Sequence record: NC_073315.1
DNA length: 43,947 nucleotides
Reading direction: 5' to 3' (one strand)
Source of the DNA: Escherichia phage vB_EcoS_fFiEco03
The position numbers and the translations under genes were made by a program. Positions 4,320-43,947 of this stretch are shown here, piece after piece; position 1 is the first letter of the stretch, and every line of letters starts with the position of its first letter. The notes below the pieces were generated by a model. The model saw only the letters and a list, made by a program, of their open reading frames with translations, ran no database searches and was not told where the DNA came from.

Positions 4320-4323
4320 TAAA

Positions 4324-4353
4324 AGGCCCCGTTAAGGGGCCTTAGTTTTATTT
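4324..4353. terminator. Bidirectional intrinsic terminator at convergent gene ends
   Basis: AGGCCCC-GTTAA-GGGGCCT stem-loop followed by TAGTTTTATTT; lies between the + gene ending 4319 and the - gene ending 4348. Confidence 0.6.
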
Positions 4354-4869
4354 AAATCGCGCTGGCATTAGCACCATAAATGCAGTGTTTGAAAACGATA
4401 TTTTGCATCCTCTGGTTTGGTCCTGGAAATCGAAACGAGCAATTTCATTTTTGTATGCCTTAGAAATCTTGTGCGCGTCTGCCAAGTAGGGCATGGTAAA
4501 TCCTATGCTATCAACTGCCCCCGGCGTGATGTGCGCCACACGTCGCCAGTCAGGAAATTTTCCGTCTACAACATCCACCGGAAGTGTACATATAAGCGCA
4601 CGACTATCGTCATAGAAAGATACACTGCCGTTGTCGTGGTCTACTTCCGCGTAGTTAAATTTAGAAGGCTCTCTCCCTTTTATGTCTATGAGAGCCCCAT
4701 TCTCAACGTTTGTCTTAACATTGTCGCAGAACAATCTATGGCCGTCCGTAGACACTATCAATCCTTCCGGGTCTATGTAAAAAGCGTTCAGATAGTAGCG
4801 TACATCATTTTTAGCCCTGCAGATTTTCGCCCCTACATACGCGGGAAAAGTAATTACTGTGGCAACCAT
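4348..4869 (-). CDS. Truncated DnaN-like (beta sliding clamp-like) protein, 173 aa
   Basis: Contains DVRYYLN...TDGHRL, DGKFPDWRRV and C-terminal MVLMPARFK, matching E. coli DnaN landmarks (DVRYYLNGMLF...TDGHRL, DGRFPDYRRV, VVMPMRL) recalled from memory; AGGAG RBS and own promoter. Confidence 0.6.
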   Translation of the reverse strand: MVATVITFPAYVGAKICRAKNDVRYYLNAFYIDPEGLIVSTDGHRLFCDNVKTNVENGALIDIKGREPSKFNYAEVDHDNGSVSFYDDSRALICTLPVDVVDGKFPDWRRVAHITPGAVDSIGFTMPYLADAHKISKAYKNEIARFDFQDQTRGCKISFSNTAFMVLMPARFK

Positions 4870-4896
4870 TTTACATCTCCTGTTTAAGTTATCCGA

Positions 4897-4925
4897 ATAG
4901 TACCCTATTATGTTGGTGTCTGCAA
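4897..4925 (-). promoter_or_regulatory. Sigma70-like promoter, class I (TTGCAG-N17-TACTAT), drives the DnaN-like gene
   Basis: Read on the - strand: -35 TTGCAG, 17-nt spacer containing ATAATAGGG, -10 TACTAT. Same architecture as the promoters at 14663, 37107 and 38586. Confidence 0.55.
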
Positions 4926-4991
4926 ACTATTTGTTTACGTATTCCAGTTATTCCACTCAATTGTAAATGTTGGAATAAACTATTCGAATAG

Positions 4992-5020
4992 TTGACTTTT
5001 CACTAAAAATATGCTAAGCT
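4992..5020 (+). promoter_or_regulatory. Sigma70-like promoter, class III (TTGACT-N17-TAAGCT, extended -10 TG)
   Basis: -35 TTGACT, 17-nt spacer ending in TGC, -10 TAAGCT. Near-identical to the promoter at 36798..36826. Confidence 0.6.
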
Positions 5021-5026
5021 CCACCT

Positions 5027-5134
5027 GAGCTTGTGAAGTATGAACAAGCGACCGCGGCGCGGGCAGGTAACGGAGCGGGACGTAAGTCCTGAGTGTAGTT
5101 ACGCTGACGCGTTCGGTAGGGCCATACTCTATTG
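5027..5134 (+). ncRNA. Promoter-proximal conserved structured RNA element, copy A (candidate sRNA or cis-acting leader)
   Basis: Begins at the predicted +1 of the 4992 promoter; about 80 percent identical to 36832..36941; two hairpins conserved with compensatory changes; frame not conserved between copies; terminator follows at 5201..5228. Confidence 0.45.
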
Positions 5135-5200
5135 CTTGTGTAAAAAGTAACTGGTTTACTGAGATTACGCCGTTTCAGTGTTTAAATGATAAGGACTAGC

Positions 5201-5228
5201 GCCCCGCTTTATGGCGGGGCTTTACTTA
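5201..5228 (+). terminator. Intrinsic terminator downstream of RNA element copy A
   Basis: GCCCCGC-TTTATG-GCGGGGC 7-bp GC stem followed by TTTACTT. Confidence 0.5.
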
Positions 5229-5244
5229 TCGAGAAAGGAGAAAC

Positions 5245-5631
5245 ATGAATCTTAAAGCAACTGTCGTAGCGGGAGCATGTTTCATCATCCTGGCTTACGC
5301 ACACGGCATCTATCAGTACCGCAGCGGCTGGAACGAAGGCCGGGCGAATCTCGTTTCGCAGCAACAGCAGGAAGCACAGGCTGAGCTGGTGAAGAAAACA
5401 CAACGGCAGCAGCAGGATGAATCAAAGGCCGCCGCCGCTGACAACGAAGGCAAGACGAAATCAGAGGTGATTACCCGTGAAGTCGTTAAGTACATTAAAA
5501 CGCCTGGCCGCAGCGTGTGCACTTTCGACGATGCTCGCGTCCTGCTCAAGTCCCACGCCGTTGCCAACGCCAATTCCATCCCCGGATACGACGATGATGC
5601 AGCCGCCGTGCAAACTGGCACCGCCAAGTAG
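5245..5631 (+). CDS. i-spanin (Rz-like)
   Basis: 128 aa with N-terminal TM segment (ATVVAGACFIILAYA), Q/E-rich coiled-coil region, and an overlapping +1-frame lipoprotein ORF. Confidence 0.65.
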   Translation: MNLKATVVAGACFIILAYAHGIYQYRSGWNEGRANLVSQQQQEAQAELVKKTQRQQQDESKAAAADNEGKTKSEVITREVVKYIKTPGRSVCTFDDARVLLKSHAVANANSIPGYDDDAAAVQTGTAK

Positions 5632-5740
5632 CGACGCTGACGAGGATTTAGCTATCGACGTTCAGAACGCCGAATGCGTACGGCAATTGCGCCTGAAAGT
5701 ATTCATGTTGCAGGATTACGTGAGGAATATTCTGGAATAG
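5477..5740 (+). CDS. o-spanin (Rz1-like outer-membrane lipoprotein), overlapping the i-spanin gene in the +1 frame
   Basis: GTG start with AGAGG RBS; signal peptide ending in lipobox LASC; proline-rich mature part (SPTPLPTPIPSP). Confidence 0.6.
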   Translation: MKSLSTLKRLAAACALSTMLASCSSPTPLPTPIPSPDTTMMQPPCKLAPPSSDADEDLAIDVQNAECVRQLRLKVFMLQDYVRNILE

Positions 5741-5822
5741 TTGCCTTGCATGTTGGAATAATTTATTCTTGACATGTAAATCCGGGTGGCCCGGATTCCA
5801 ACGTCCAGGGGACATACTGACT

Positions 5823-6527
5823 ATGAATCGTTTTTTACGTTATCCGTTCCAGGAAGAAGCTGGGGCAGAAGATAAATCTGGCGGTGGCGACGCTCCAAAA
5901 ATGTTCACCGCTGAAGAAGTTCAGGCGCTGATTGAGAAAGAAGTTGCCGGACTTAAGGCCAATCAGGAAGCATTGCTGGCGGAGAAGAAAGAAGCTGCCC
6001 GTAAAGCAAAAGAGGCCGAAGAGGAACGTCAGCGCGCGCACCAGGAGGCGCTAAAAGCCGCCGGTAAGATGGACGAGTTCGAAAAGACGATTCGTAGCCA
6101 GTATGACCCGGTGTTAGCCGAGAAAGATGGTCGCATCTCCAAAATGGCAGAGCGCATCCTCGGCAGCGAACGTAAAGCGGTGTTAGGCTCTTTCGCAGGT
6201 GATTTCATCACACCGGAAGCAGTAGACATTCTTGCTCCGTTCGTTAAGACTGAGTTTGAAGGCGATGACGTGGTTACTAAGTTTGTTGGTGCAGACGGCA
6301 ACGTAATCACAACTGACCCGGAACAGTTCCGCAAGTACCTGCGCGAACACAAAGCGTTTTCGCATTTGATTAAAGCAAATGCAGCTTCCGGCGGCGGGGC
6401 TTCCGGTAGCAAAGGCGGCGGGGCCGCACCAGCGTTTAAAGACATGAGTGAAGCGGAGCGTATCGCTCTGTACGAATCGAACCCTGCCGAATTTGAACGG
6501 CAACTTAAAGCCCTGAGGAAAAAATAA
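5823..6527 (+). CDS. Scaffolding protein (putative)
   Basis: About 234 aa, highly charged and coiled-coil-rich (AEKKEAARKAKEAEEERQRAHQE), immediately upstream of and stop/start-overlapping the major capsid gene. Confidence 0.6.
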   Translation: MNRFLRYPFQEEAGAEDKSGGGDAPKMFTAEEVQALIEKEVAGLKANQEALLAEKKEAARKAKEAEEERQRAHQEALKAAGKMDEFEKTIRSQYDPVLAEKDGRISKMAERILGSERKAVLGSFAGDFITPEAVDILAPFVKTEFEGDDVVTKFVGADGNVITTDPEQFRKYLREHKAFSHLIKANAASGGGASGSKGGGAAPAFKDMSEAERIALYESNPAEFERQLKALRKK

Positions 6528-7576
6528 TGGCAATTACTACTATCGGCGATATCGTAACTGGTAAAGAATCGGTAATCCTGTCCTACATGACAGAGGACCC
6601 GGTAGAGAAAACCGCGTTCTTCCAGTCCGGTATCCTTACCTCGACTCCGTACGCCGCCGCTATCGCAAACGGCCCGTCCAACAAAGCTGTTCTGCCGTAC
6701 TGGAAAGCGATTGATACCTCTATCGAACCGAACTACTCGAACGATGTGTATCAGGATGTCGCCACCCCACGTAACGTGCAAACCGGTGAGATGGATGTTC
6801 GCGTGGCTTATCTGAACGAAGGTTTCGGCCAGGCGGATTTGACTGTTGAACTGACCAGCCAGAACCCGCTGCAATCCGTAGCGTCCCGTCTGGATAACTT
6901 CTGGCAGCGTCAGGCACAACGCCGTCTGATTGCTACCGCGCTCGGTCTGTACAACGACAACGTAGCCGCTACCGACGCATACCACGAGCAGAACGACATG
7001 GTAGTGGACGTGTCCGCAACCCTGGGCTTCGACTCGGGCGCGTTCATCGACGCTACCCAGACTATGGGTGATGCGCTGATGGGCAACGGCGGTGAAGTGT
7101 TGGGCGCTATCGCGATGCACAGCTTCGTATATGCGCAGGCACGTAAACAGCAGCTTATCGACTTCATCCGCGACGCCGATAACAACACCATGTTTGCTAC
7201 TTACCAGGGCTACCGCGTGATTGTTGACGACAGCATGACCGTAGTCGGCACCGGCCCGAGCCGTAAGTTCATCTCCATCATCTTCGGTAACGGTGCTATC
7301 GGTTACGGCGAGGGCAACCCGTCTAACCCGCTGGAATACGAACGCGAAGCGTCTCGTGGTAACGGTGGTGGCGTTGAAACCCTGTGGACCCGTAAGACCT
7401 GGTTGCTGCATCCGTTTGGTTACAGCTTCACCAGCGCGGTAATCACTGGCAACGGGACCGAGACTATCGCCCGCTCTGCTTCCTGGCAGGACCTGGCGAA
7501 CGCCTCCAACTGGAACCGTGTTGTTGACCGTAAGCATGTACCTATTGCCTTCCTGGTAACTGGCGTCGGTGCTTAA
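6527..7576 (+). CDS. Major capsid protein
   Basis: 349 aa following the scaffold gene (TAATG overlap) and followed by a strong terminator; position and size typical. Confidence 0.8.
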   Translation: MAITTIGDIVTGKESVILSYMTEDPVEKTAFFQSGILTSTPYAAAIANGPSNKAVLPYWKAIDTSIEPNYSNDVYQDVATPRNVQTGEMDVRVAYLNEGFGQADLTVELTSQNPLQSVASRLDNFWQRQAQRRLIATALGLYNDNVAATDAYHEQNDMVVDVSATLGFDSGAFIDATQTMGDALMGNGGEVLGAIAMHSFVYAQARKQQLIDFIRDADNNTMFATYQGYRVIVDDSMTVVGTGPSRKFISIIFGNGAIGYGEGNPSNPLEYEREASRGNGGGVETLWTRKTWLLHPFGYSFTSAVITGNGTETIARSASWQDLANASNWNRVVDRKHVPIAFLVTGVGA

Positions 7577-7591
7577 GGTTAAGATATAATC

Positions 7592-7620
7592 GAGAGGGAC
7601 TTCGGTCCCTCTTTTCATTT
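7592..7620 (+). terminator. Intrinsic terminator after the major capsid gene
   Basis: GAGAGGGAC-TTCG-GTCCCTCTT stem-loop followed by TTCATTT. Confidence 0.7.
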
Positions 7621-12182: not shown

Positions 12183-12815
12183 ATGTTCTTGTATGAAGAA
12201 TTTGAAAAGATACCAGCATCAAAACGGGCGGTATCATGCCGTAAAACAATCTGCGGAGTCGGTGTCAACGATGCAGATTTCACCACCAGTATTTTCAACG
12301 GCAAAAAGTCTGTTAACCACCCGGTGTACGATATTTGGTGTGCGATGATATTCAGGTGCTACCATGGGTCCGTTAAGCATCCAACATACTCAGGAGTGGT
12401 AGTGTGTGAAGACTGGCTGTATTTCTCCAACTACTTTAAATGGTACAAAGATAACTACGTAGAGGGTTGGCATGTTGACAAAGATTTGCTTACGGATTCT
12501 AAAGAATACTCACCGGATACCTGTATATTTGTCCCAAGAGTTTTAAACAACTTTCTAACCGACAGCGCAGCGGCTAGAGGTGACCTACCGATAGGCCTTA
12601 CTTATAGGAAAACAAACGGCAAGATTCGATGCAGGGTTAATAATCCGCTAACCGGGGTGCGCGAAAACTTAGGCGATTTTACCGATTTGGATGAAGCCAT
12701 CAAGGCCAGAACGCTGCGGAAGTTAGAGATAGCCGGAGAACTTAAGCCACTTATGGATTCCATAGACGGGAGAATCTATCCGAGGGCCGTTTCTGTAATT
12801 AAGGCACAACGATAA
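12183..12815 (+). CDS. Putative homing endonuclease (HNH-like nuclease domain plus C-terminal AP2-like DNA-binding domain)
   Basis: N-terminal W..M..RC...HP.Y.G..VC.DW..F..F..W...EGWHVDKDLL...YSPDTC pattern; C-terminal GKIRCRVNNPLTGVRENLGDFTDLDEAIKA (AP2-like); free-standing between terminators. Confidence 0.55.
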   Translation: MFLYEEFEKIPASKRAVSCRKTICGVGVNDADFTTSIFNGKKSVNHPVYDIWCAMIFRCYHGSVKHPTYSGVVVCEDWLYFSNYFKWYKDNYVEGWHVDKDLLTDSKEYSPDTCIFVPRVLNNFLTDSAAARGDLPIGLTYRKTNGKIRCRVNNPLTGVRENLGDFTDLDEAIKARTLRKLEIAGELKPLMDSIDGRIYPRAVSVIKAQR

Positions 12816-12819
12816 AACT

Positions 12820-12845
12820 AAGGCCCCTTTCGGGGCCTTTTTCTT
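12820..12845. terminator. Bidirectional intrinsic terminator (28-nt sequence repeated at 24735..24762)
   Basis: AAGGCCCC-TTTC-GGGGCCTT with U-rich flanks on both strands; convergent junction. Confidence 0.7.
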
Positions 12846-13074
12846 ACTCATCAATATTGCTTCGGTACTCCCGTAACTTCTCCAGGCTTTCGATTGCCTC
12901 AGCTAAGTCTGTCCAGGTGTCCTTGTGACCACGTAAACCCATACACAATAGCTTCTTCAATGCGTGCTGTAACGCCGGGTCGCGTATGTCGAAGGCGCGT
13001 AGCACGTCGTAAACGTCTACAGTCATGGTGCTGCCGTGGGTGTTTGTCATTGTGCGGTTGTATTTATTTGTCAC
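12844..13074 (-). CDS. Hypothetical small protein (start ambiguous: 13074, 13050 or 13026)
   Basis: Last gene of the - strand island; no clear SD for any candidate start. Confidence 0.4.
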   Translation of the reverse strand: MTNKYNRTMTNTHGSTMTVDVYDVLRAFDIRDPALQHALKKLLCMGLRGHKDTWTDLAEAIESLEKLREYRSNIDE

Positions 13075-14621: not shown

Positions 14622-14662
14622 GGTGTAGCTCCTGTTTGAGTTAACATTGTTGGTGTAAGTGA

Positions 14663-14691
14663 ATAGTATCCTATTATGTTGGGGTGCGCAA
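14663..14691 (-). promoter_or_regulatory. Sigma70-like promoter, class I (TTGCGC-N17-TACTAT), drives the reverse island
   Basis: On the - strand: TTGCGC, spacer ACCCCAACATAATAGGA, TACTAT. Near-identical to the + strand promoter at 37107..37135. Confidence 0.55.
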
Positions 14692-22744: not shown

Positions 22745-24736
22745 ATGTCAAGCGGATGCGGTGACGTTTTAAGCCTGGCGGATTTACAAACCGCCAAGAA
22801 GCACCAGATTTTCGAAATCGAGGTTATCACCGGTAAAGCAGGCGGTGTAGCCGGTGGAGCAGATATTGATTATGCAACGAACCAGGTTACCGGGCAGACT
22901 CAAAAGACTCTGCCCGCCGTGTTGCGTGATACTGGTTTTTCTCCTGTATCGTGGGATTTCTCCACTGGCGGTACTCTTACTGTTAATGACCGTGACAAAG
23001 TTGTCTACGACCCTGTAAGTAAAACGTGGTATTCATACGCAGGTACGTTGCCGGTTGTAGTCCCCTCGGGCTTTGACCCGGTAGGCAACGCAGACTGGAA
23101 GCCACAGACTGACCATGATTTGCGTAATGATTTGGCGTCAAGTACCGCCGGTTTAGGGGCTTCACTGGTGTCTTTTTCCAACGGTAATACCGTTGAAACA
23201 TTATCCGACGCAGATGGCGCTAAGAACATCGGCAGTGGAGAAAGGACATTGCTTGAGCACAACAATGATGTTTTGCACTCAAAAGACTTCCCAACACTGC
23301 AGGCAGCTATAGATGCATCTTTGCAAAAAAATGATCTACTGGTGTCTCCTGGTAATTATACTGAAAACGTGACGCTTGGTAATGCGCAACTGAAAGGCGT
23401 AGGTGGTGCTACGGTAATAAAGCCACAAGGTGATTTTTCAACTGCAGTGATGGCAAAATTATCAACACCACATTGGCAATACAGGCATAGTTGTAATTTT
23501 GAAATAGACGGAACCGGTACAACTGGTTCTGTCGGTTTTGGTTATGACCCTACGGACCAGTACTCGGGTCGTCACAATCTAAGCGATACCTACATCCATC
23601 ACATTAATAAAGCAATTTCTAAACCTTCTGGAAATATTGGTAATACTTTTCGTAGTATAGGTATTAACAATTGTGACTGGGGATATCACGCCATCAGTGG
23701 TACAGAGATGCACTGTGGAGCAGACACTCTGTATAACTTCCATATGAATAGCATTAGTACTTACGCTGTGTATCTGAATGCAACTATAGGAGCATCCTCT
23801 ACAGGAGGGGGAATTGGTGGTTGGTGGTTAAAAGACTCTATTATTGAAGGCTCAGAAGGTGGCGGGGTATATCTTAAGAATAAGCCAGGAGATTGCCCAA
23901 GTGCACCGTGTGGAATATCAAATGTATGGTTTGAGGCCATAGCCACTGCTGATGCAGTAAATGTTGATGGTGCTGCTATAGAACCAAGAACTTTACATTT
24001 AATTGACACAAGCATTTTCTATGCTGAATATTCATACATAAACAGCATAAAATTAGAAAGGTCAAACCTTATAACATACGGCTGTCGTTTCGATAATGCC
24101 GATGGAAATCAGAGTATAGAGATAGATGCTGAGAGTACTATTAAGGCTTACGATACTTATCTTAATGGCACTCCCGGTAAAGATGTTATTGTTGAGAGTA
24201 TAGCTTCACAGACGGGTAAGCTTCACACCATTGACCTGTGTTTGAGGGGTTCTATTACAAAAGGCAGACTGTTTAATACTCCTTCGGGGAATAAGTTGGC
24301 AGCAATACCTTTTGATGACGGAACGCATACATGGGGCGGGAATGCTAGTGTAACAGGGACCCTGGTAGGTATGGGGCTTCATTCAAAAAATTGTGAATCA
24401 TTTACATTCCCCGCTAACGCTGTTCTGGAATTAACTGACTCCAAAGTCAATATCACCAGCGGTAAGTGGTATGTATGGGGCATTAATGCCAGACTTAATT
24501 CTGGTGATATGAATATGAGGATTACAGGGGGGATCACTTTGGGTAGTGTTTATCTCAAGCAAGGTGAATGGGTCAGTACATTTGGAGTTGCTCAGGCCGA
24601 GGCATCAGAATCTGCAACGTTATACGTTACAACTTCTTCTGCGAGTGTTGTATATCTTGCTGACTATTTTGTTGCTGAATTTGCATCTCAGAGTGAGGCA
24701 ATGGCTTTCGCAAATACCAGAATGTCGTTGGTCTAA
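22745..24736 (+). CDS. Tailspike protein (conserved N-terminal anchor plus beta-helix-like receptor-binding or depolymerase domain)
   Basis: 663 aa with AGAGGA RBS; N-terminus MSSGCGDVLSLADLQTAKKHQIFEIEV recalled as the Jersey-like tailspike anchor; C-terminal part AT-richer with repetitive beta-helix-like motifs. Confidence 0.75.
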   Translation: MSSGCGDVLSLADLQTAKKHQIFEIEVITGKAGGVAGGADIDYATNQVTGQTQKTLPAVLRDTGFSPVSWDFSTGGTLTVNDRDKVVYDPVSKTWYSYAGTLPVVVPSGFDPVGNADWKPQTDHDLRNDLASSTAGLGASLVSFSNGNTVETLSDADGAKNIGSGERTLLEHNNDVLHSKDFPTLQAAIDASLQKNDLLVSPGNYTENVTLGNAQLKGVGGATVIKPQGDFSTAVMAKLSTPHWQYRHSCNFEIDGTGTTGSVGFGYDPTDQYSGRHNLSDTYIHHINKAISKPSGNIGNTFRSIGINNCDWGYHAISGTEMHCGADTLYNFHMNSISTYAVYLNATIGASSTGGGIGGWWLKDSIIEGSEGGGVYLKNKPGDCPSAPCGISNVWFEAIATADAVNVDGAAIEPRTLHLIDTSIFYAEYSYINSIKLERSNLITYGCRFDNADGNQSIEIDAESTIKAYDTYLNGTPGKDVIVESIASQTGKLHTIDLCLRGSITKGRLFNTPSGNKLAAIPFDDGTHTWGGNASVTGTLVGMGLHSKNCESFTFPANAVLELTDSKVNITSGKWYVWGINARLNSGDMNMRITGGITLGSVYLKQGEWVSTFGVAQAEASESATLYVTTSSASVVYLADYFVAEFASQSEAMAFANTRMSLV

Positions 24737-24740
24737 AACT

Positions 24741-24766
24741 AAGGCCCCTTTCGGGGCCTTTTCTCT
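24741..24766. terminator. Bidirectional intrinsic terminator (identical copy of the 12820 hairpin)
   Basis: AAGGCCCC-TTTC-GGGGCCTT followed by TTCTCT; junction of the convergent tailspike and replication operons. Confidence 0.7.
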
Positions 24767-24902
24767 ATTCTTCTGATACCTTCTCCAGTATAAACGCCAG
24801 TTGCGCGTTAGCGGCATCTCTCTGTTGCCGTAGTCTTAGCACTTCCTCTTCAAGTTCCTTGATACGTTTTTGCAATGCCGGAATCGGGGCTATGATGTTC
24901 AT
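24765..24902 (-). CDS. Micro-ORF: 45-aa coiled-coil peptide
   Basis: Hand-translated (MNIIAPIPALQKRIKELEEEVLRLRQQRDAANAQLAFILEKVSEE); its ATG overlaps the upstream stop (ATGA); last gene of the - operon. Confidence 0.35.
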   Translation of the reverse strand: MNIIAPIPALQKRIKELEEEVLRLRQQRDAANAQLAFILEKVSEE

Positions 24903-27217: not shown

Positions 27218-27502
27218 CTAACTATAATAGTTCGCTATTAGGTCGTCAACCTGTTTGAACGACCCGACGACAAAAACATTCGCGCCGCGTTTGCGCATAC
27301 GCTCATGCTCACGTAACTGGTGTGGGTCTGGCTTCGTGTTTTCGTCTTTCTTAACCTCGACGAACCAGACGATACCGTTGGGGAGAATTACCAGCAGGTC
27401 GGGGGCGCCGGAACGCCCCTCGTAGGAAAGTTTACGAACGAGGCCGCCGATAGCCTCGAATCGCTCTTTTGCGTATTTCTGGATGCGCCCCTCTTTAGTC
27501 AT
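27218..27502 (-). CDS. VRR-NUC domain nuclease (putative)
   Basis: 94 aa from ATG 27502 (ATGA-coupled); pattern G.PDLLVILPNGIVWFVEVKK...Q consistent with a VRR-NUC PD-(D/E)xK core (recalled). Confidence 0.55.
   Translation of the reverse strand: MTKEGRIQKYAKERFEAIGGLVRKLSYEGRSGAPDLLVILPNGIVWFVEVKKDENTKPDPHQLREHERMRKRGANVFVVGSFKQVDDLIANYYS
27221..27249 (-). promoter_or_regulatory. Sigma70-like promoter, class II (TTGACG-N17-TATAGT), embedded in the 3' end of the VRR-NUC gene
   Basis: On the - strand: TTGACG, spacer ACCTAATAGCGAACTAT, TATAGT. Same design as the promoters at 30954 and 33569. Confidence 0.55.
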
Positions 27503-30900: not shown

Positions 30901-30953
30901 CGTGATTTCTCGCTTTTCAGTTTACTCCGGGAACTGCCCGGCCAGTGATTAGA

Positions 30954-30982
30954 ACTATAATAGCTAACTATTCAGGTGTCAA
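30954..30982 (-). promoter_or_regulatory. Sigma70-like promoter, class II (TTGACA-N17-TATAGT)
   Basis: On the - strand: TTGACA, spacer CCTGAATAGTTAGCTAT, TATAGT; upstream of the SSB-like gene. Confidence 0.6.
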
Positions 30983-30986
30983 CACT

Positions 30987-32261
30987 TTATTCTAAATCTT
31001 CTTCACTAACACGACTCCACTCAGGCCGTTTGTCGCCCGCCGTTGTGATGCATGGGGCACCTGGTTTACGTGTGATGAAGTCTTTCAGTTCTTCTTCCGG
31101 CACAACTTTAACCGCTTCGGTCGGCGTCATGAGCACTTCTTTAGTCAGCTTGTCGCCGTAGAGTTCTGTTACTTTCTCCGCGTCTTTCCACGCACGATTG
31201 CCCATCTTACCTTCAACCAGCTTGTACCCAGGAACTTTCTTACCGGAATGCAACGCGGCAGCCATAGCTTTCTCAACCTTGTCGATGTGCTGGCGCAACA
31301 ACGGCAACTTCTCGTACTCAGCTACGAGTTCCTCCGGCGTAAGTTCCAGCGCAAAGTCGTCCTCCAGTTCTTCCGCCAGTACATCGTTAACGGTTTTTGT
31401 ACGCGCGGCGCATTGTTCAGAGAACCGACACCACTGACAACCATCGACCGACGGCTTAAAGTCAGACGCTTTCAGGTTCTTCTTGCCGCGGGAATAGGCA
31501 TCGAGCGCTAACAGTGCTCGTTTTTGTGCAAACTTAGCGAACAGTTCAAGGCCTTCAACCGAGATGTCCCACTCCGACGCACCGCCCGCGTACGGCTGGA
31601 AGATAACCAGACGGACCACGGTGATGTTATAACGTCTCTTGAGTCTGCGATAAACACCGAGAGCGTAAAGCATAAGCTGCTTGTTTTCTTTCGCTTCGAC
31701 ACGATGCCGACCCGTTTTAAGGTCGCCAATAATGAGCATGTACTCGTCGGTGTTAGCCAGTTCCTGAACGGCAACAAGGTCAGCCGTTCCGAACGTCTCT
31801 AAATCATCTTCCTCGCCTTCTTCACCTTCAACGGGTACTTTGTACCCGGGGTGTAGAATCTGCGTAAGATTGATACGCATTTCCAGCTTGGCGTAAGTCG
31901 CTACATCAATAATCGCTTTGCAGTAGTCGGTATACTTTTGCACCTGCTCAATCATGTCCGCCGTAATCAGTACCGCGCCTTTCATCGGGCTGATTAGCGC
32001 CTTAATCTGGCCTTTACCCTCATCCAGCACGTAAGCACCGACTTCACGCTCTAGCGGCAACGCAGTTCCGCGGATATAGGCGTTGAGATGGACCTCAGCT
32101 ATTGTGTGCATAGCTGTGCCTAATACAGCAGCTTTACCGGACGTGTTAGGGATATCTTTTTCACAGGCAAGTGATGCGGCGCAACTTAGCCACTTTTTAG
32201 CGCCTGACGGCGACAGTAATGCGTGAACATCGTTATTGCCGCCGCGTTCCTTTAAAATCAT
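30987..32261 (-). CDS. PD-(D/E)xK exonuclease, Cas4/RecB-like (DUF2800-like) with Cys cluster
   Basis: Start at ATG 32261 (ATGA-coupled); C-terminal CQWCRFSEQC plus N-terminal Cys; IIGDLKTGR and QLMLYALG motifs. Confidence 0.65.
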   Translation of the reverse strand: MILKERGGNNDVHALLSPSGAKKWLSCAASLACEKDIPNTSGKAAVLGTAMHTIAEVHLNAYIRGTALPLEREVGAYVLDEGKGQIKALISPMKGAVLITADMIEQVQKYTDYCKAIIDVATYAKLEMRINLTQILHPGYKVPVEGEEGEEDDLETFGTADLVAVQELANTDEYMLIIGDLKTGRHRVEAKENKQLMLYALGVYRRLKRRYNITVVRLVIFQPYAGGASEWDISVEGLELFAKFAQKRALLALDAYSRGKKNLKASDFKPSVDGCQWCRFSEQCAARTKTVNDVLAEELEDDFALELTPEELVAEYEKLPLLRQHIDKVEKAMAAALHSGKKVPGYKLVEGKMGNRAWKDAEKVTELYGDKLTKEVLMTPTEAVKVVPEEELKDFITRKPGAPCITTAGDKRPEWSRVSEEDLE

Positions 32262-33538: not shown

Positions 33539-33568
33539 TTTATCTCTCCTCTCGTTTGGTATGGGCTA

Positions 33569-33597
33569 ACTATAATAGCGAACTATTCACATGTCAA
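33569..33597 (-). promoter_or_regulatory. Sigma70-like promoter, class II (TTGACA-N17-TATAGT), divergent from the Cro-like gene
   Basis: On the - strand: TTGACA, spacer TGTGAATAGTTCGCTAT, TATAGT. Confidence 0.6.
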
Positions 33598-33621
33598 TGG
33601 GCTTTTCTAAAATAATTAATA

Positions 33622-33630
33622 TGGTACTAT
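33622..33630 (+). promoter_or_regulatory. Extended -10 promoter (TGgTACTAT) for the Cro-like gene
   Basis: TG-N-TACTAT with a poor -35; overlaps the second ACTATTCACAT(A/G)TCAA repeat. Confidence 0.45.
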
Positions 33631-33661
33631 TCACATATCAACTGACTAAGGAGTAATTGAC

Positions 33662-36797: not shown

Positions 36798-36826
36798 TTG
36801 ACTTTTACTTAAAAATATGCTAAGCT
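36798..36826 (+). promoter_or_regulatory. Sigma70-like promoter, class III (TTGACT-N17-TAAGCT, extended -10 TG)
   Basis: Near-identical to 4992..5020 (spacer differs at 2 positions). Confidence 0.6.
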
Positions 36827-36831
36827 TCACT

Positions 36832-36941
36832 GAGCTTGTGAGATATCGCAAGCGACCGCGGAGCGGCAGGGAACGCAACGCGTGCCATTAGGCACTTGAG
36901 TGTAGTTCCGCTGGCGCTTTCGGAAGGGCCAAAGTCTATTG
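36832..36941 (+). ncRNA. Promoter-proximal conserved structured RNA element, copy B
   Basis: Starts at predicted +1; alignable to 5027..5134 with one indel; hairpins GCTTGTG/CGCAAGC and GTGCC-ATTA-GGCAC correspond to GCTTGT/ACAAGC and GGAC-GTAA-GTCC in copy A. Confidence 0.45.
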
Positions 36942-37106
36942 TTAATCCCGCCTAAATACCCAAGTCACTGATAATTAAAAGTTTATATAGTTGCCGTAAG
37001 CAAGGTAGAGAGTACTTCACTCCGCTGGGGTGGGCTAACGCCCACCCACTGCGTTGCGTACTCTTTTAAGAAACGAAAGAATCACAACGGCAACGTAACT
37101 ATTCTC

Positions 37107-37135
37107 TTGCACACCCCAATATAATAGGATACTAT
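37107..37135 (+). promoter_or_regulatory. Sigma70-like promoter, class I (TTGCAC-N17-TACTAT)
   Basis: TTGCAC, spacer ACCCCAATATAATAGGA, TACTAT; followed by a conserved AACGAGA..GGAG leader. Confidence 0.6.
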
Positions 37136-37168
37136 TCACTTATCTAAACGAGACAGAGGAGTAGGGTT

Positions 37169-38635: not shown

Positions 38636-38662
38636 GAGACGGAATATGAGTAACAAAAACGA
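38636..38662 (+). repeat. 27-nt direct repeat, copy 1 (RBS plus first 6 codons; copy 2 at 38821..38847)
   Basis: GAGACGgaATATGAGTAACAAAAACGA versus GAGACGtaTTATGAGTAACAAAAACGA (25 of 27 identical). Confidence 0.7.
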
Positions 38663-38834
38663 GCATTTGATTAAAGTTACCCCAGTATGGTCGGCGTGGG
38701 TTATTGCCTCTGATGGGAAGCACGTACCAAAATTCGTGTTCACTGATGAGAAAGTTGCGCGTGAGTGGCTTCGCGCCGGCAAGAAAGGTGAACGCGGCAT
38801 CATGAAGGTTGGGCTTGTAGGAGACGTATTATGA
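38646..38834 (+). CDS. Hypothetical protein, 62 aa (N-terminus MSNKNE)
   Basis: ORF with GAGGAG RBS; flanked by the 27-nt direct repeats. Confidence 0.5.
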   Translation: MSNKNEHLIKVTPVWSAWVIASDGKHVPKFVFTDEKVAREWLRAGKKGERGIMKVGLVGDVL

Positions 38835-38847
38835 GTAACAAAAACGA
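38821..38847 (+). repeat. 27-nt direct repeat, copy 2
   Basis: See 38636..38662. Confidence 0.7.
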
Positions 38848-40425: not shown

Positions 40426-40734
40426 TTGGATAAATTTACTGAAACAGTGACTGGCTGGCTTCTGGCTGCCGCACTCGCCGGAGGAGTCATCGGACTACGA
40501 CAACATAAGTCCGTTATTTCTGGCCCTATCGACGGCTTCTGCTTTATTGCAACTGGCTTCACTTGCGCCGTATTTGGTGCACCTCTCGCCGCCCAATGGT
40601 TCGGTATCACCGGCGAGCGCGAGATAGCTGGCCTCGGATTCATTATCGCTATTCTCTGGATGCCCATCTATTCCCGCCTCTCCGGTATCGTCGCCGGAGA
40701 ATACATCGCACGTCGAGGAGGCCCGGATGAATGA
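40426..40734 (+). CDS. Holin (3 predicted TM segments)
   Basis: TTG start with GGAGG RBS; three hydrophobic segments; first gene of the holin-holin-endolysin cluster. Confidence 0.55.
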   Translation: MDKFTETVTGWLLAAALAGGVIGLRQHKSVISGPIDGFCFIATGFTCAVFGAPLAAQWFGITGEREIAGLGFIIAILWMPIYSRLSGIVAGEYIARRGGPDE

Positions 40735-40999
40735 GTTATTCTGGTTCGGTGGTATGCTGGCAATCGGGGGTACATCGCTGTTTAATGTGTATCATCCCAG
40801 CGTGGACGACGGGCTGTTCGGCCGGGTGCTCTATATCCTGACCACCATCGTTTGCGCCGCCGGATGTATCCACCTGTTACAGGGCAGCATGTCACCTACA
40901 CTGCCTGAGACATTAATCACATTAGTTGCGCTGCGCCAGATTCGTCAGGCGTGGCTGTCATATGGGGGATATAAGCGTGTCTCGAAACATCTCAGATAA
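40727..40999 (+). CDS. Holin/antiholin-like membrane protein (2 TM)
   Basis: 90 aa with two hydrophobic segments; overlaps both neighbours. Confidence 0.45.
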   Translation: MNELFWFGGMLAIGGTSLFNVYHPSVDDGLFGRVLYILTTIVCAAGCIHLLQGSMSPTLPETLITLVALRQIRQAWLSYGGYKRVSKHLR

Positions 41000-41465
41000 T
41001 GGCTTGCATTTCACCGCCGCGTTCGAGGGATTCCGCGGAACTGCGTATCGTGCTACGCCGAACGAGAAGTACCTGACGATAGGCTACGGCCATTACGGGC
41101 CGGATGTAACCCCAGGTAAGACCATCACACCGGGGCAAGGCCTCCTGCTACTTAATCGTGATATGGCTAAGGCCGTAGCTGCGGTTGACGCCGCAGCGCA
41201 CCATTCGCTTACACAGGCACAGTTCGACGCAGTATGCGACCTGGTGTACAACGCAGGTGCTGGCGTTATTGCGGCTACTACAGGAACCGGTAAGGCTCTG
41301 CGTTCTGGTGATATTGCGACGCTACGGGCTAAACTGGCGCTGTTTATCAACCAGAACGGCAAACCGCTACTCGGCTTGCGTCGCCGTACTGCGGGCCGTC
41401 TGGCCCTGTTCGACGGCAAACCGTGGCAGGAGGCAGAGGCTATCGGGCGCGCGGTGAAAGGTTGA
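40962..41465 (+). CDS. Endolysin (lysozyme, GH24-like)
   Basis: Start at ATG 40962; catalytic region FEGFRGTAYRATPNEKYLTIGYGH matches the phage lysozyme E...D/C...T(I)G(Y)GH pattern. Confidence 0.8.
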   Translation: MGDISVSRNISDNGLHFTAAFEGFRGTAYRATPNEKYLTIGYGHYGPDVTPGKTITPGQGLLLLNRDMAKAVAAVDAAAHHSLTQAQFDAVCDLVYNAGAGVIAATTGTGKALRSGDIATLRAKLALFINQNGKPLLGLRRRTAGRLALFDGKPWQEAEAIGRAVKG

Positions 41466-43340: not shown

Positions 43341-43405
43341 CCCTTTAGACGCGTAGGGCGCGTCTGGTGCGCTCTGATGGTCAGACGCATATGCAAGGGG
43401 ATTAT

Positions 43406-43947
43406 ATGAAACTTACACTTAAGCAGCCATCGCCAGAGGTGGTGCAAGCTGCACATGAAGAGGCTGTTAGTGCCAACCGTCGCCGTAAACGACCGCGGGG
43501 TAAACAGAGCCTTTACCAGTCATCCCGTAATTCTGCGGCATTGTGGGACCCGGACTATTGCGACGAGTTAATCCGGTTCTTTGACCGCAACTCATGGGAA
43601 CTCGTACCTACGTCCAAGGGTGACGAACGCCCGCTGATTCAGGATAAACCCCCGTCACTGGCCCGCTTCGCCTTACACATCGGCGTAACTATCCCTATTA
43701 TTAAGCTGTGGTTGCGTGAGATTCCGGCGTTTGCAGAAGCCTATGAAACCGCTCAGGCGCTGGAAGAGGCGTATTTCACTGAGACAGGCGCTGCCGGTAT
43801 CTCCGCTACGTTTGCTGCGGCTAAGCTGGGCTTAAGCAAAGAGAAACCTGTTGAATCCTCCGAAGAAACTGCGCCGACTGAGATTGTGTTCACCGTAGCG
43901 GAGCCGGTAGGTAAAATCGTTACCACGAACATGGGTGAGGTAGGGGA
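43406..43947 (+). CDS. terS: Terminase small subunit (runs off the window end, no stop seen)
   Basis: Open frame from ATG 43406 (AAGGGGA RBS) to the end of the window; basic N-terminal region; sits immediately 5' of terL in the circularly permuted map. Confidence 0.6.
   Translation, partial: MKLTLKQPSPEVVQAAHEEAVSANRRRKRPRGKQSLYQSSRNSAALWDPDYCDELIRFFDRNSWELVPTSKGDERPLIQDKPPSLARFALHIGVTIPIIKLWLREIPAFAEAYETAQALEEAYFTETGAAGISATFAAAKLGLSKEKPVESSEETAPTEIVFTVAEPVGKIVTTNMGEVG

Follow-up and report, generated by a model that had tools for sequence, protein, structure and literature searches.

Overlapping spanin genes upstream of the scaffold gene

We describe here a pair of overlapping genes in Escherichia phage vB_EcoS_fFiEco03 (sequence record NC_073315.1), which was analysed over the whole stretch of 43,947 nucleotides, referred to below as the window. 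An i-spanin gene and a +1-frame o-spanin gene that starts within it and runs on beyond it lie between a DnaN-like gene (the DnaN-like moron of the original prediction) and the scaffold gene, as that prediction had placed them; the two holin-like genes and the endolysin gene that it put at 40426..41465 are also found there (Table 1).

Table 1. Features of the spanin locus, the lysis cassette and the leader RNA copies, in window coordinates
Feature	Position	Strand	Details and basis
Strong bidirectional terminator	4323-4343		After the decoration gene; terminator scan
DnaN-like gene	4348..4869	leftward	ORF, directly after the 4323-4343 terminator
Sigma-70-like promoter, TTGACT-17 nt-TG-n-TAAGCT (extended -10)	4992..5020	+	Sequence; repeated at 36798-36826 (repeat D7)
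Leader RNA copy A	5024..5137	+	Covariance model match, 143.8 bits; 107 nt upstream of the spanin genes
GC-rich hairpin, GCCCCGC-TTTAT-GGCGGGGC followed by TTTACTTATC	5201..5220	+	Top terminator-like match, 25 nt before the i-spanin ATG
i-spanin gene	5245..5631	+	ATG ORF, 128 aa; PHROG match, hydropathy, annotation in relatives
o-spanin Shine-Dalgarno, GAGGTG	5464-5469	+	Inside the i-spanin frame, 7 nt before the GTG
o-spanin gene	5477..5740	+	GTG start, 87 aa, +1 frame; PHROG matches, lipobox, codon-position diversity
Spanin-scaffold intergenic region, 82 nt	5741..5822	+	Nearly invariant across 48 relatives
Palindrome GAATAATTTATTC	5756-5768	+	In 5741..5822, abuts TTGACA
TTGACA box	5769-5774	+	In 5741..5822
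Hairpin AATCCGGG-TGG-CCCGGATT	5779-5797	+	In 5741..5822
Scaffold gene start (ATG)	5823	+	Sequence
Copy B: promoter (36798-36826) and leader (36829-36944)	36798..36944	+	Repeats D7 and D4; covariance model match, 88.9 bits
Holin/antiholin gene, 102 aa	40426..40734	+	phrog_2359 holin, E=3.1e-29
Second holin/antiholin gene, 90 aa	40727..40999	+	phrog_2508 holin, E=1.9e-31; Schulenburg annotation holin/antiholin
Endolysin gene, 167 aa, lysozyme family	40962..41465	+	PF00959, E=6.7e-27; phrog_33703, phrog_7

The i-spanin product matches phrog_2536 ('Rz-like spanin') over its full length (E=4.8e-54), and records of relatives annotate the homologous gene as i-spanin or spanin. Its sole hydrophobic 19-mer is formed by residues 1-19 (mean KD 1.65), the remainder being polar and rich in Gln and Lys, and by predicted topology it is a type-II membrane protein with one N-terminal transmembrane segment. 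Of its cysteines, Cys12 and Cys92, the latter falls in the predicted periplasmic part. A single-sequence AF2 model, of low confidence (mean pLDDT 62, pTM 0.28), places helices at residues 3-84 and 94-107.

The start of the o-spanin gene lies 232 nucleotides after that of the i-spanin gene (5477-5245) and its ORF is therefore in the +1 frame; the two genes share 155 bp (5477..5631) and the o-spanin gene reaches 109 bp past the i-spanin gene, the arrangement of the 'overlapped' class. The encoded signal, MKSLSTLKRLAAACALSTMLAS-C, has a positive n-region, a hydrophobic core and a LASC lipobox, with Cys23 followed by Ser24 at the +2 position, and the mature part is Pro-rich and carries Cys45 and Cys67. 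The +2 rule for lipoproteins is well established, and as Ser at this position leads to outer-membrane sorting, the o-spanin is predicted to be sorted there. Periplasmic cysteines for predicted intermolecular disulfides are thus present on both subunits (Cys92 of the i-spanin, Cys45/Cys67 of the o-spanin). The o-spanin matches two spanin families, phrog_5672 over residues 41-87 (E=4.7e-30) and phrog_1267 over residues 8-86 (E=2.3e-18), and a six-frame scan of the whole window for lipoprotein signals, down to ORFs of 40 aa, returned no other ORF. In the part of the gene that is o-spanin only, nucleotide diversity peaks at the third codon position of the o-frame (0.242, versus 0.085 and 0.033 at the other positions), which is a coding signature for this frame; in the overlap it is the i-spanin frame that dominates the codon-position diversity. 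Searches of Pfam and NCBIfam gave no significant Rz or Rz1 match, the best being to DUF2514 (E=0.019) and to an LppU-type lipoprotein of NCBIfam (E=0.009), and we therefore do not claim direct homology to lambda Rz/Rz1.

Conservation of the pair and prior annotation

Conservation was assessed in IMG/VR, at 48 loci whose i-spanins are 61-96% identical to that of fFiEco03 and which include Jersey-type Salmonella phages. The count for the lipobox and the +1 frame covers 47 of these, the 48th (L049) being a partial i-spanin only. At all 47 the +1 frame is open and has a start codon, a Shine-Dalgarno sequence and a lipobox (LASC, LSAC, LSGC or LNGC), down to about 61% i-spanin identity, and this conservation of an overlapping lipobox ORF is far beyond chance. 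The exact architecture of 128 aa, 155-bp overlap and 87 aa recurs in 42 loci, and relatives with the 155-bp overlap keep a Shine-Dalgarno sequence for the o-spanin (GAGGTG, GAGGTA or GGAGGC) at unchanged spacing. One locus (L037) has instead a 'separated' arrangement, with an overlap of 8-14 bp and another signal peptide, and matches the 'separated' case of FSL_SP-031 in the literature (PMC6139136). The order of decoration protein, optional insert, i-/o-spanin, scaffold and major capsid protein genes is the same at 48 of 48 loci, none of which has a holin or endolysin gene within 3 kb of the spanins. The position next to the scaffold gene is fixed across the subfamily and is not unusual for the group.

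Both the spanin pair and its separation from the holin, antiholin and endolysin genes are real but have been described before. The genome announcement of Schulenberg notes that the spanins are genetically separate from the holin, antiholin and endolysin (PMC6763661), and published Kagunavirus and Jerseyvirus papers list the same spanin genes. In GenBank the pair has been annotated since K1ind3, where both ORFs are 'putative spanin' and the same 264-bp o-spanin ORF is 'putative spanin; overlapping gene'. A megablast search of GenBank phages with the region 5100-5900 matched 211 records, from Escherichia and Salmonella phages, many of which carry i-spanin and o-spanin labels; the best matches, at 95-97% DNA identity, are to Kagunavirus (Guernseyvirinae) coliphages. 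The Jersey family of the spanin census of Kongari et al. (2018) comprises 27 members with overlapped two-component spanins, among them Jersey, SETP3, K1G, K1H and K1ind1-3 (PMC6139136), and we consider it highly probable that the fFiEco03 pair is an overlapped two-component spanin of this family of Guernseyvirinae siphophages, positioned at the start of the scaffold/major-capsid unit. The ORFs, the lipobox, the PHROG families, the coding signature and the conservation all uphold the original description of the pair as an Rz-like i-spanin with an overlapping +1-frame, Pro-rich, Rz1-like lipoprotein (lipobox LASC). As a spanin finding it carries little weight, since it adds one more member of the Jersey family at the standard Guernseyvirinae position.

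Two other readings of the genes have to be considered. Other phage lipoproteins carry out superinfection exclusion, and the pair could be a membrane protein and a lipoprotein with a role of this kind, or another one outside lysis. The genes are unlinked to those of the holins and endolysin, the Pfam and NCBIfam searches returned no significant Rz/Rz1 match, and we found no experiments on any spanin of the Jersey family in the literature searched, the published family assignment being bioinformatic. We nonetheless regard a non-lysis role as very improbable, given that every structural hallmark of two-component spanins is present together, that the pair is universal at a fixed position in lytic phages of Gram-negative hosts which have no other spanin candidate, that the relative Schulenburg has a separate annotated Imm-like superinfection immunity gene, and that the curated census places the family among spanins (PMC6139136). 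The other reading concerns the extent of the o-spanin, the annotation of which is inconsistent in the group, some records and PHROG 5672 holding a shortened form of 47-48 aa without a lipoprotein signal. If the product started at ATG 5594 (MMQPPC...) and the GTG-initiated signal peptide were untranslated, this would agree with the Schulenburg CDS 6882..7028 that is annotated as the o-spanin and with the phrog_5672 profile, whose 47 positions cover only the C-terminal part of the protein. However, a product without signal peptide or lipobox could not get to the outer membrane, and every relative keeps the +1 frame open upstream of ATG 5594, with its Shine-Dalgarno sequence conserved, the start at the same place and the lipobox Cys in every sequence. 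The phrog_1267 alignment also extends beyond the short form, K1ind3 is annotated with the long one, and it is the long form that matches the 155-bp overlap of the Jersey family (PMC6139136). Restriction of the o-spanin to the short product is thus extremely improbable.

The holin-endolysin cassette and the circular map

The first gene of the cassette, whose counterpart in Schulenburg carries the annotation antiholin/holin class II, encodes a protein with two or more hydrophobic segments. The endolysin is soluble, with no N-terminal hydrophobic segment or transmembrane domain, and equals the Schulenburg endolysin in length; ATG 40962 is its most likely start. No second spanin and no unimolecular spanin was found near the endolysin gene or elsewhere in the genome, and the ORFs after 41465 have no signal sequences. 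The holin, endolysin and spanin genes thus do not form a contiguous cassette of the lambda type, either here or in Schulenburg and the 48 relatives, and the proposal that the spanins lie apart from the cassette and directly upstream of the scaffold gene survives a search for a spanin candidate adjoining the endolysin.

The distance between the two groups of genes depends on how the genome is drawn. The window opens with the start codon (ATG) of the large terminase gene, and the terS frame, which begins near 43367, continues past the 3' end to its close in base 4, giving across the window ends a TerS C-terminus that is that of Schulenburg TerS. Because terS crosses the ends, the window represents the whole genome of a Kagunavirus phage (Guernseyvirinae), with its circular map written linearly. 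Headful packaging is predicted for the relative Schulenberg (PMC6763661) and the K1ind3 record (GU196281) is circular, and together with the terS reading frame these identify the circular map as the relevant genetic map. The separation of about 35 kb given in the original prediction is right in linear coordinates (34.7 kb) and wrong on the circle, where the i-spanin ATG lies about 7.7 kb (43947-41465+5245) from the endolysin stop, downstream and on the same strand. Between them are small ORFs, terS, terL, the portal, head morphogenesis and decoration genes, and the one leftward DnaN-like gene. A linear drawing of a circularly permuted genome can give misleading distances.

Proposed role of the pair in lysis

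In phage lambda, Rz and Rz1 span the periplasm by binding each other through their C-termini, and conserved cysteines link the molecules by disulfides. By analogy, we infer the localisation of the fFiEco03 proteins and membrane fusion by the pair. The N-terminal helix of the i-spanin would anchor it in the inner membrane, with a mostly helical domain extending into the periplasm, and the o-spanin, translated from its own Shine-Dalgarno sequence and GTG within the i-spanin gene, would be exported and, once lipidated at Cys23, directed to the outer membrane. The C-termini of the two would bind across the periplasm, with their cysteines making intermolecular disulfides. Once the holins had released the endolysin and the wall was degraded, the spanin complex would fuse the inner and outer membranes. 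As spanins would be inert until the wall is gone, they would need late expression only and not linkage to the holins, and co-expression with the head genes should be sufficient.

Expression of the spanin and scaffold genes

The spacer of 375 bp between the DnaN-like gene and the spanin genes holds the promoter-like site at 4992-5020, the boxes of which (TTGAC and TG-n-TA(A/C)GCT, with 'n' varying) are kept in both Kagunavirus-type and Jersey-type relatives; a stricter consensus promoter scan did not list the site. The stem of the hairpin that follows at 5201-5220 covaries in relatives (GCCCTGC/GCAGGGC, GCCCGGC/GCCGGGC and GCCCGAC/GTCGGGC), and its T-tract is weak, with a U-poor tail in Jersey-type phages. 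Its possible roles are those of a weak terminator, an attenuator or a hairpin that stabilises the RNA. The terminator scan found no terminator-like site between 5740 and 7592, the next being at 7592-7613, after the capsid gene.

There are two ways in which these elements could be read. The promoter-like site, the terminator at 4323-4343 and the lack of a terminator before 7592-7613 favour a single spanin-scaffold-capsid transcript, in line with the transcription with head genes put forward in the original prediction, and it is plausible from this arrangement of signals that the spanins are co-transcribed with the scaffold and capsid genes. The hairpin at 5201-5220 and the palindrome with its TTGACA box at 5756-5774 suggest that spanins and scaffold/MCP genes are possibly not simply co-transcribed. 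The spanins could instead form a short, separately regulated unit, with transcripts from 4992-5020 attenuated or processed at the leader and hairpin and the scaffold and MCP genes expressed mainly from a promoter with its -35 at TTGACA 5769. The terminator-like, covarying hairpin sits directly before the i-spanin ribosome binding site, the spanin-scaffold intergenic region with the palindrome abutting TTGACA is nearly invariant, and the phage requires much more scaffold and MCP than spanin. Against this, the hairpin tail is U-poor, most so in Jersey-type phages, the candidate -10 after TTGACA 5769 is poor (CGGATT), Jersey-type phages have TTGTTA as the -35, and the interval from 5740 to 7592 has no terminator-like site. 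A separately regulated spanin unit is thus possible but on balance unlikely. Our search of the literature for Guernseyvirinae transcriptomics or antitermination found nothing relevant.

A structured leader RNA present in two copies

The 'RNA element copy A' of the original prediction, put forward there as a possible control of the spanins, is indeed a structured RNA directly upstream of them, as the covariance model and the covariation indicate. A hairpin at its 5' end precedes a long rod, P1-P2-P3-P4, and the conserved loops are GAGUGUAG, UUCGGAAGGGCC and CUAUUG. Copy B repeats the promoter together with about 115 nt of the sequence after it, the repeat cores being 87-88% identical, and independent folds of five variants of substantially different sequence (copy A types, two copy B types and a Jersey type) give the same shape; the fold z-score of copy A is -3.3. 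The covariance model was built from copy-A sequences, and when 35 distinct sequences are aligned, 94.7% of cells are paired and 17 of 29 pairs have changed on both sides, compared with 28-44% paired in slid-partner controls, counts that lean towards structure since the alignment was fitted to the model. Judged by this covariation, copy A is a genuine structured RNA. Its conservation cannot be attributed to the 36-aa ORF at 5040..5150, annotated 'hypothetical protein' in some relatives, as the ATG is absent from copy B and from Jersey-type copies, which places the conservation at the RNA level.

Exactly two copies are found by the covariance model in the window and two in Schulenburg, the model being biased to the Kagunavirus copy-A type such that a very divergent copy could be missed. 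A scan of IMG/VR with a 15-base pattern from the leader core returned Guernseyvirinae-like contigs together with unrelated matches that have no remainder of the element, and the latter were treated as chance. Rfam gave no match at gathering thresholds over the whole window, and only chance-level ones (E of 0.7 or more) in 4870-5260. Jersey-type relatives have a copy ahead of the spanin-scaffold genes, and no leader copy was detectable in the early-right control region of Jerseyvirus Ent2, the one region of that phage examined; the spanin-side copy therefore looks like the ancestral one.

By gene order, copy B heads a rightward operon in which the holin and endolysin genes precede terS and terL. 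With copy A preceding the spanins, both halves of the lysis system lie downstream of the same type of promoter and leader. A GC-rich hairpin comes after each of the two copies, and both operons contain internal terminators. From this we suggest that the leader, which would then time late and lysis gene expression, could represent either a new class of promoter-proximal RNA acting in antitermination or attenuation or a site to which a phage late regulator binds. An extension of this idea, that the split lysis genes are coordinated in trans by the shared promoter-leader RNA instead of by adjacency, is offered with low confidence and as a rather unlikely arrangement. More generally, the candidate functions are an antitermination/attenuation leader, a regulator binding site, and an mRNA-stability or processing element. 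Being absent from Rfam, the leader is the only feature of the neighbourhood that is perhaps worth work on late-gene timing in these phages, and it is of more interest than the spanins themselves.

Comparison with known systems

For the leader, a loose analogy is provided by putL and putR of HK022, two promoter-proximal stem-loop RNAs per genome that stand ahead of operons with internal terminators (PMC9378689). The common points are the two structured, promoter-proximal copies per genome and the internal terminators of the operons. The shape differs, the leader here being a short hairpin and one long rod, and homology was rejected, as it has no sequence resemblance to putL/putR, which can be recognised in HK022 because they resemble each other.

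For the spanins, the closest comparison is with the Jersey family, which is characterised by a 155-bp overlap and the constant o-spanin cysteines Cys45 and Cys67 (PMC6139136). The fFiEco03 pair belongs to the same subfamily and has the same overlap, +1 frame and cysteines and, in the low-confidence AF2 model, an i-spanin of two helices and a linker, and its DNA is 95-97% identical to annotated Kagunavirus loci (K1ind3, Schulenburg and others). There is no substantive difference, the lipobox being LASC here and LSAC, LSGC or LNGC in relatives. By its predicted topology and sorting it shares with lambda Rz/Rz1 the combination of a type-II inner-membrane protein and a small, Pro-rich, +1-frame outer-membrane lipoprotein, with periplasmic cysteines in both. 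However, lambda Rz1 is fully embedded in Rz whereas the o-spanin here extends past the i-spanin by 109 bp, and the lambda pair ends the S-R-Rz/Rz1 cassette whereas this one is separate from the holin and endolysin genes. The textbook precedent for the last of these features is the virulent phage T4, in which the spanin genes PseT.3/PseT.2 are unlinked to holin t and endolysin e (PMC6139136). The T4 spanins are of the separated architecture and of another family, and all of the T4 lysis genes are scattered, whereas in fFiEco03 the holin, antiholin and endolysin genes stay in one cassette and the spanins stand apart from it.

A promoter and leader RNA in two copies

Two positions in the fFiEco03 genome, copy A and copy B, each carry an extended -10 sigma-70-like promoter followed by a structured leader RNA of about 115 nt, folded as a 5' hairpin and a P1-P4 rod and showing strong covariation across the Guernseyvirinae. 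The leader has no match in Rfam and no sequence relationship to HK022 put. Because the gene for the small terminase spans the window ends (43367-43947 joined to 1-4), the window is a complete genome, linearised at the ATG of terL.

Each unit is followed by a hairpin. The one ahead of the i-spanin gene shows compensatory stem changes among relatives, but has a weak T-tract that is itself little conserved, and is a candidate terminator, attenuator or stabiliser.

Features associated with the leader units, the spanin genes and their surroundings
Feature	Coordinates	Strand	Context
Copy A promoter and leader	4992-5137		ahead of the genes for spanins, scaffold and capsid
Copy B promoter and leader	36798-36944		at head of operon with holins, endolysin and terminase genes
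GC-rich hairpin	5201-5220		25 nt upstream of i-spanin ATG
Hairpin GGGTGGGC-TAAC-GCCCACCC	~37029-37048		after copy B; analogous to hairpin 5201-5220
Palindrome GAATAATTTATTC	5756-5768		spanin-scaffold spacer
TTGACA	5769-5774		spanin-scaffold spacer
Hairpin AATCCGGG-TGG-CCCGGATT	5779-5797		spanin-scaffold spacer
DnaN-like / processivity-factor-like gene	4348-4869	-	between head genes, opposite orientation
'Separated' spanin arrangement	L037 3001-3590		Kagunavirus-like contig

The spanin-scaffold spacer, and repeats elsewhere

The spacer at 5741-5822, which separates the o-spanin stop codon from the scaffold ATG at 5823, is almost invariant and contains a palindrome, a TTGACA box and a hairpin. 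The exact GAATA-N3-TATTC palindrome has a second instance at 4973-4985, directly upstream of the copy A promoter, and these elements may be regulator binding sites or, as another candidate role, an internal promoter.

Elsewhere, repeat families built on GAATAGT-N4-CTATTA lie beside TTGACA-like boxes (27220-27263, 30953-30996, 33568-33641 and 37122-37146, and also 4895-4925 and 14661-14691), and most likely represent a common promoter/operator type serving the leftward replication genes and two rightward restarts. The terminator AAGGCCCC-TTTC-GGGGCCTT is present in two near-identical copies, one at 12813-12852, 3' of the ORF ending at 12815, and the other at 24734-24773, 3' of the tailspike gene. 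Two neighbouring rightward ORFs, one beginning at 38646 and the other at 38831, have the same RBS and both start with MSNKNE (repeat 38636-38662 / 38821-38847).

Gene calls in the spanin region

Some records, and PHROG 5672 (47 positions), contain a short form of the o-spanin that starts at MMQPPC (5594-5740 in the window; 6882-7028 in L001, the Schulenburg relative) and has neither signal peptide nor lipobox. The conserved SD, GTG start and lipobox found 117 nt upstream of the short start indicate that the real gene is the 87-residue form. A 36-residue ORF at 5040-5150 lies entirely within the copy A leader RNA, and its Schulenburg homologue, Schulenberg_008, is annotated as 'hypothetical protein'. 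The start codon is absent in copy B and in the copies of the Jersey-type relatives, so what was annotated here is probably an RNA element mistaken for a gene.

Variable genes around the spanins

The DnaN-like gene matches PF02767 weakly (E=0.004), phrog_947 (E=1.9e-8) and phrog_3007, which is labelled RusA-like (E=1.6e-37). It is a variable insertion, since of the 48 related loci no more than about 10 have a detectable copy. The spanins themselves differ in contig L037, where the i-spanin has 118 residues, the two genes overlap by 8-14 bp and the o-spanin signal peptide (MNKLFLSAVIIGITGC) is unrelated; the adjacent scaffold and capsid genes match those of the window at 98-99% identity. The L037 spanin locus is a local module swap, and it resembles the case of phage FSL_SP-031 described in the literature (PMC6139136).
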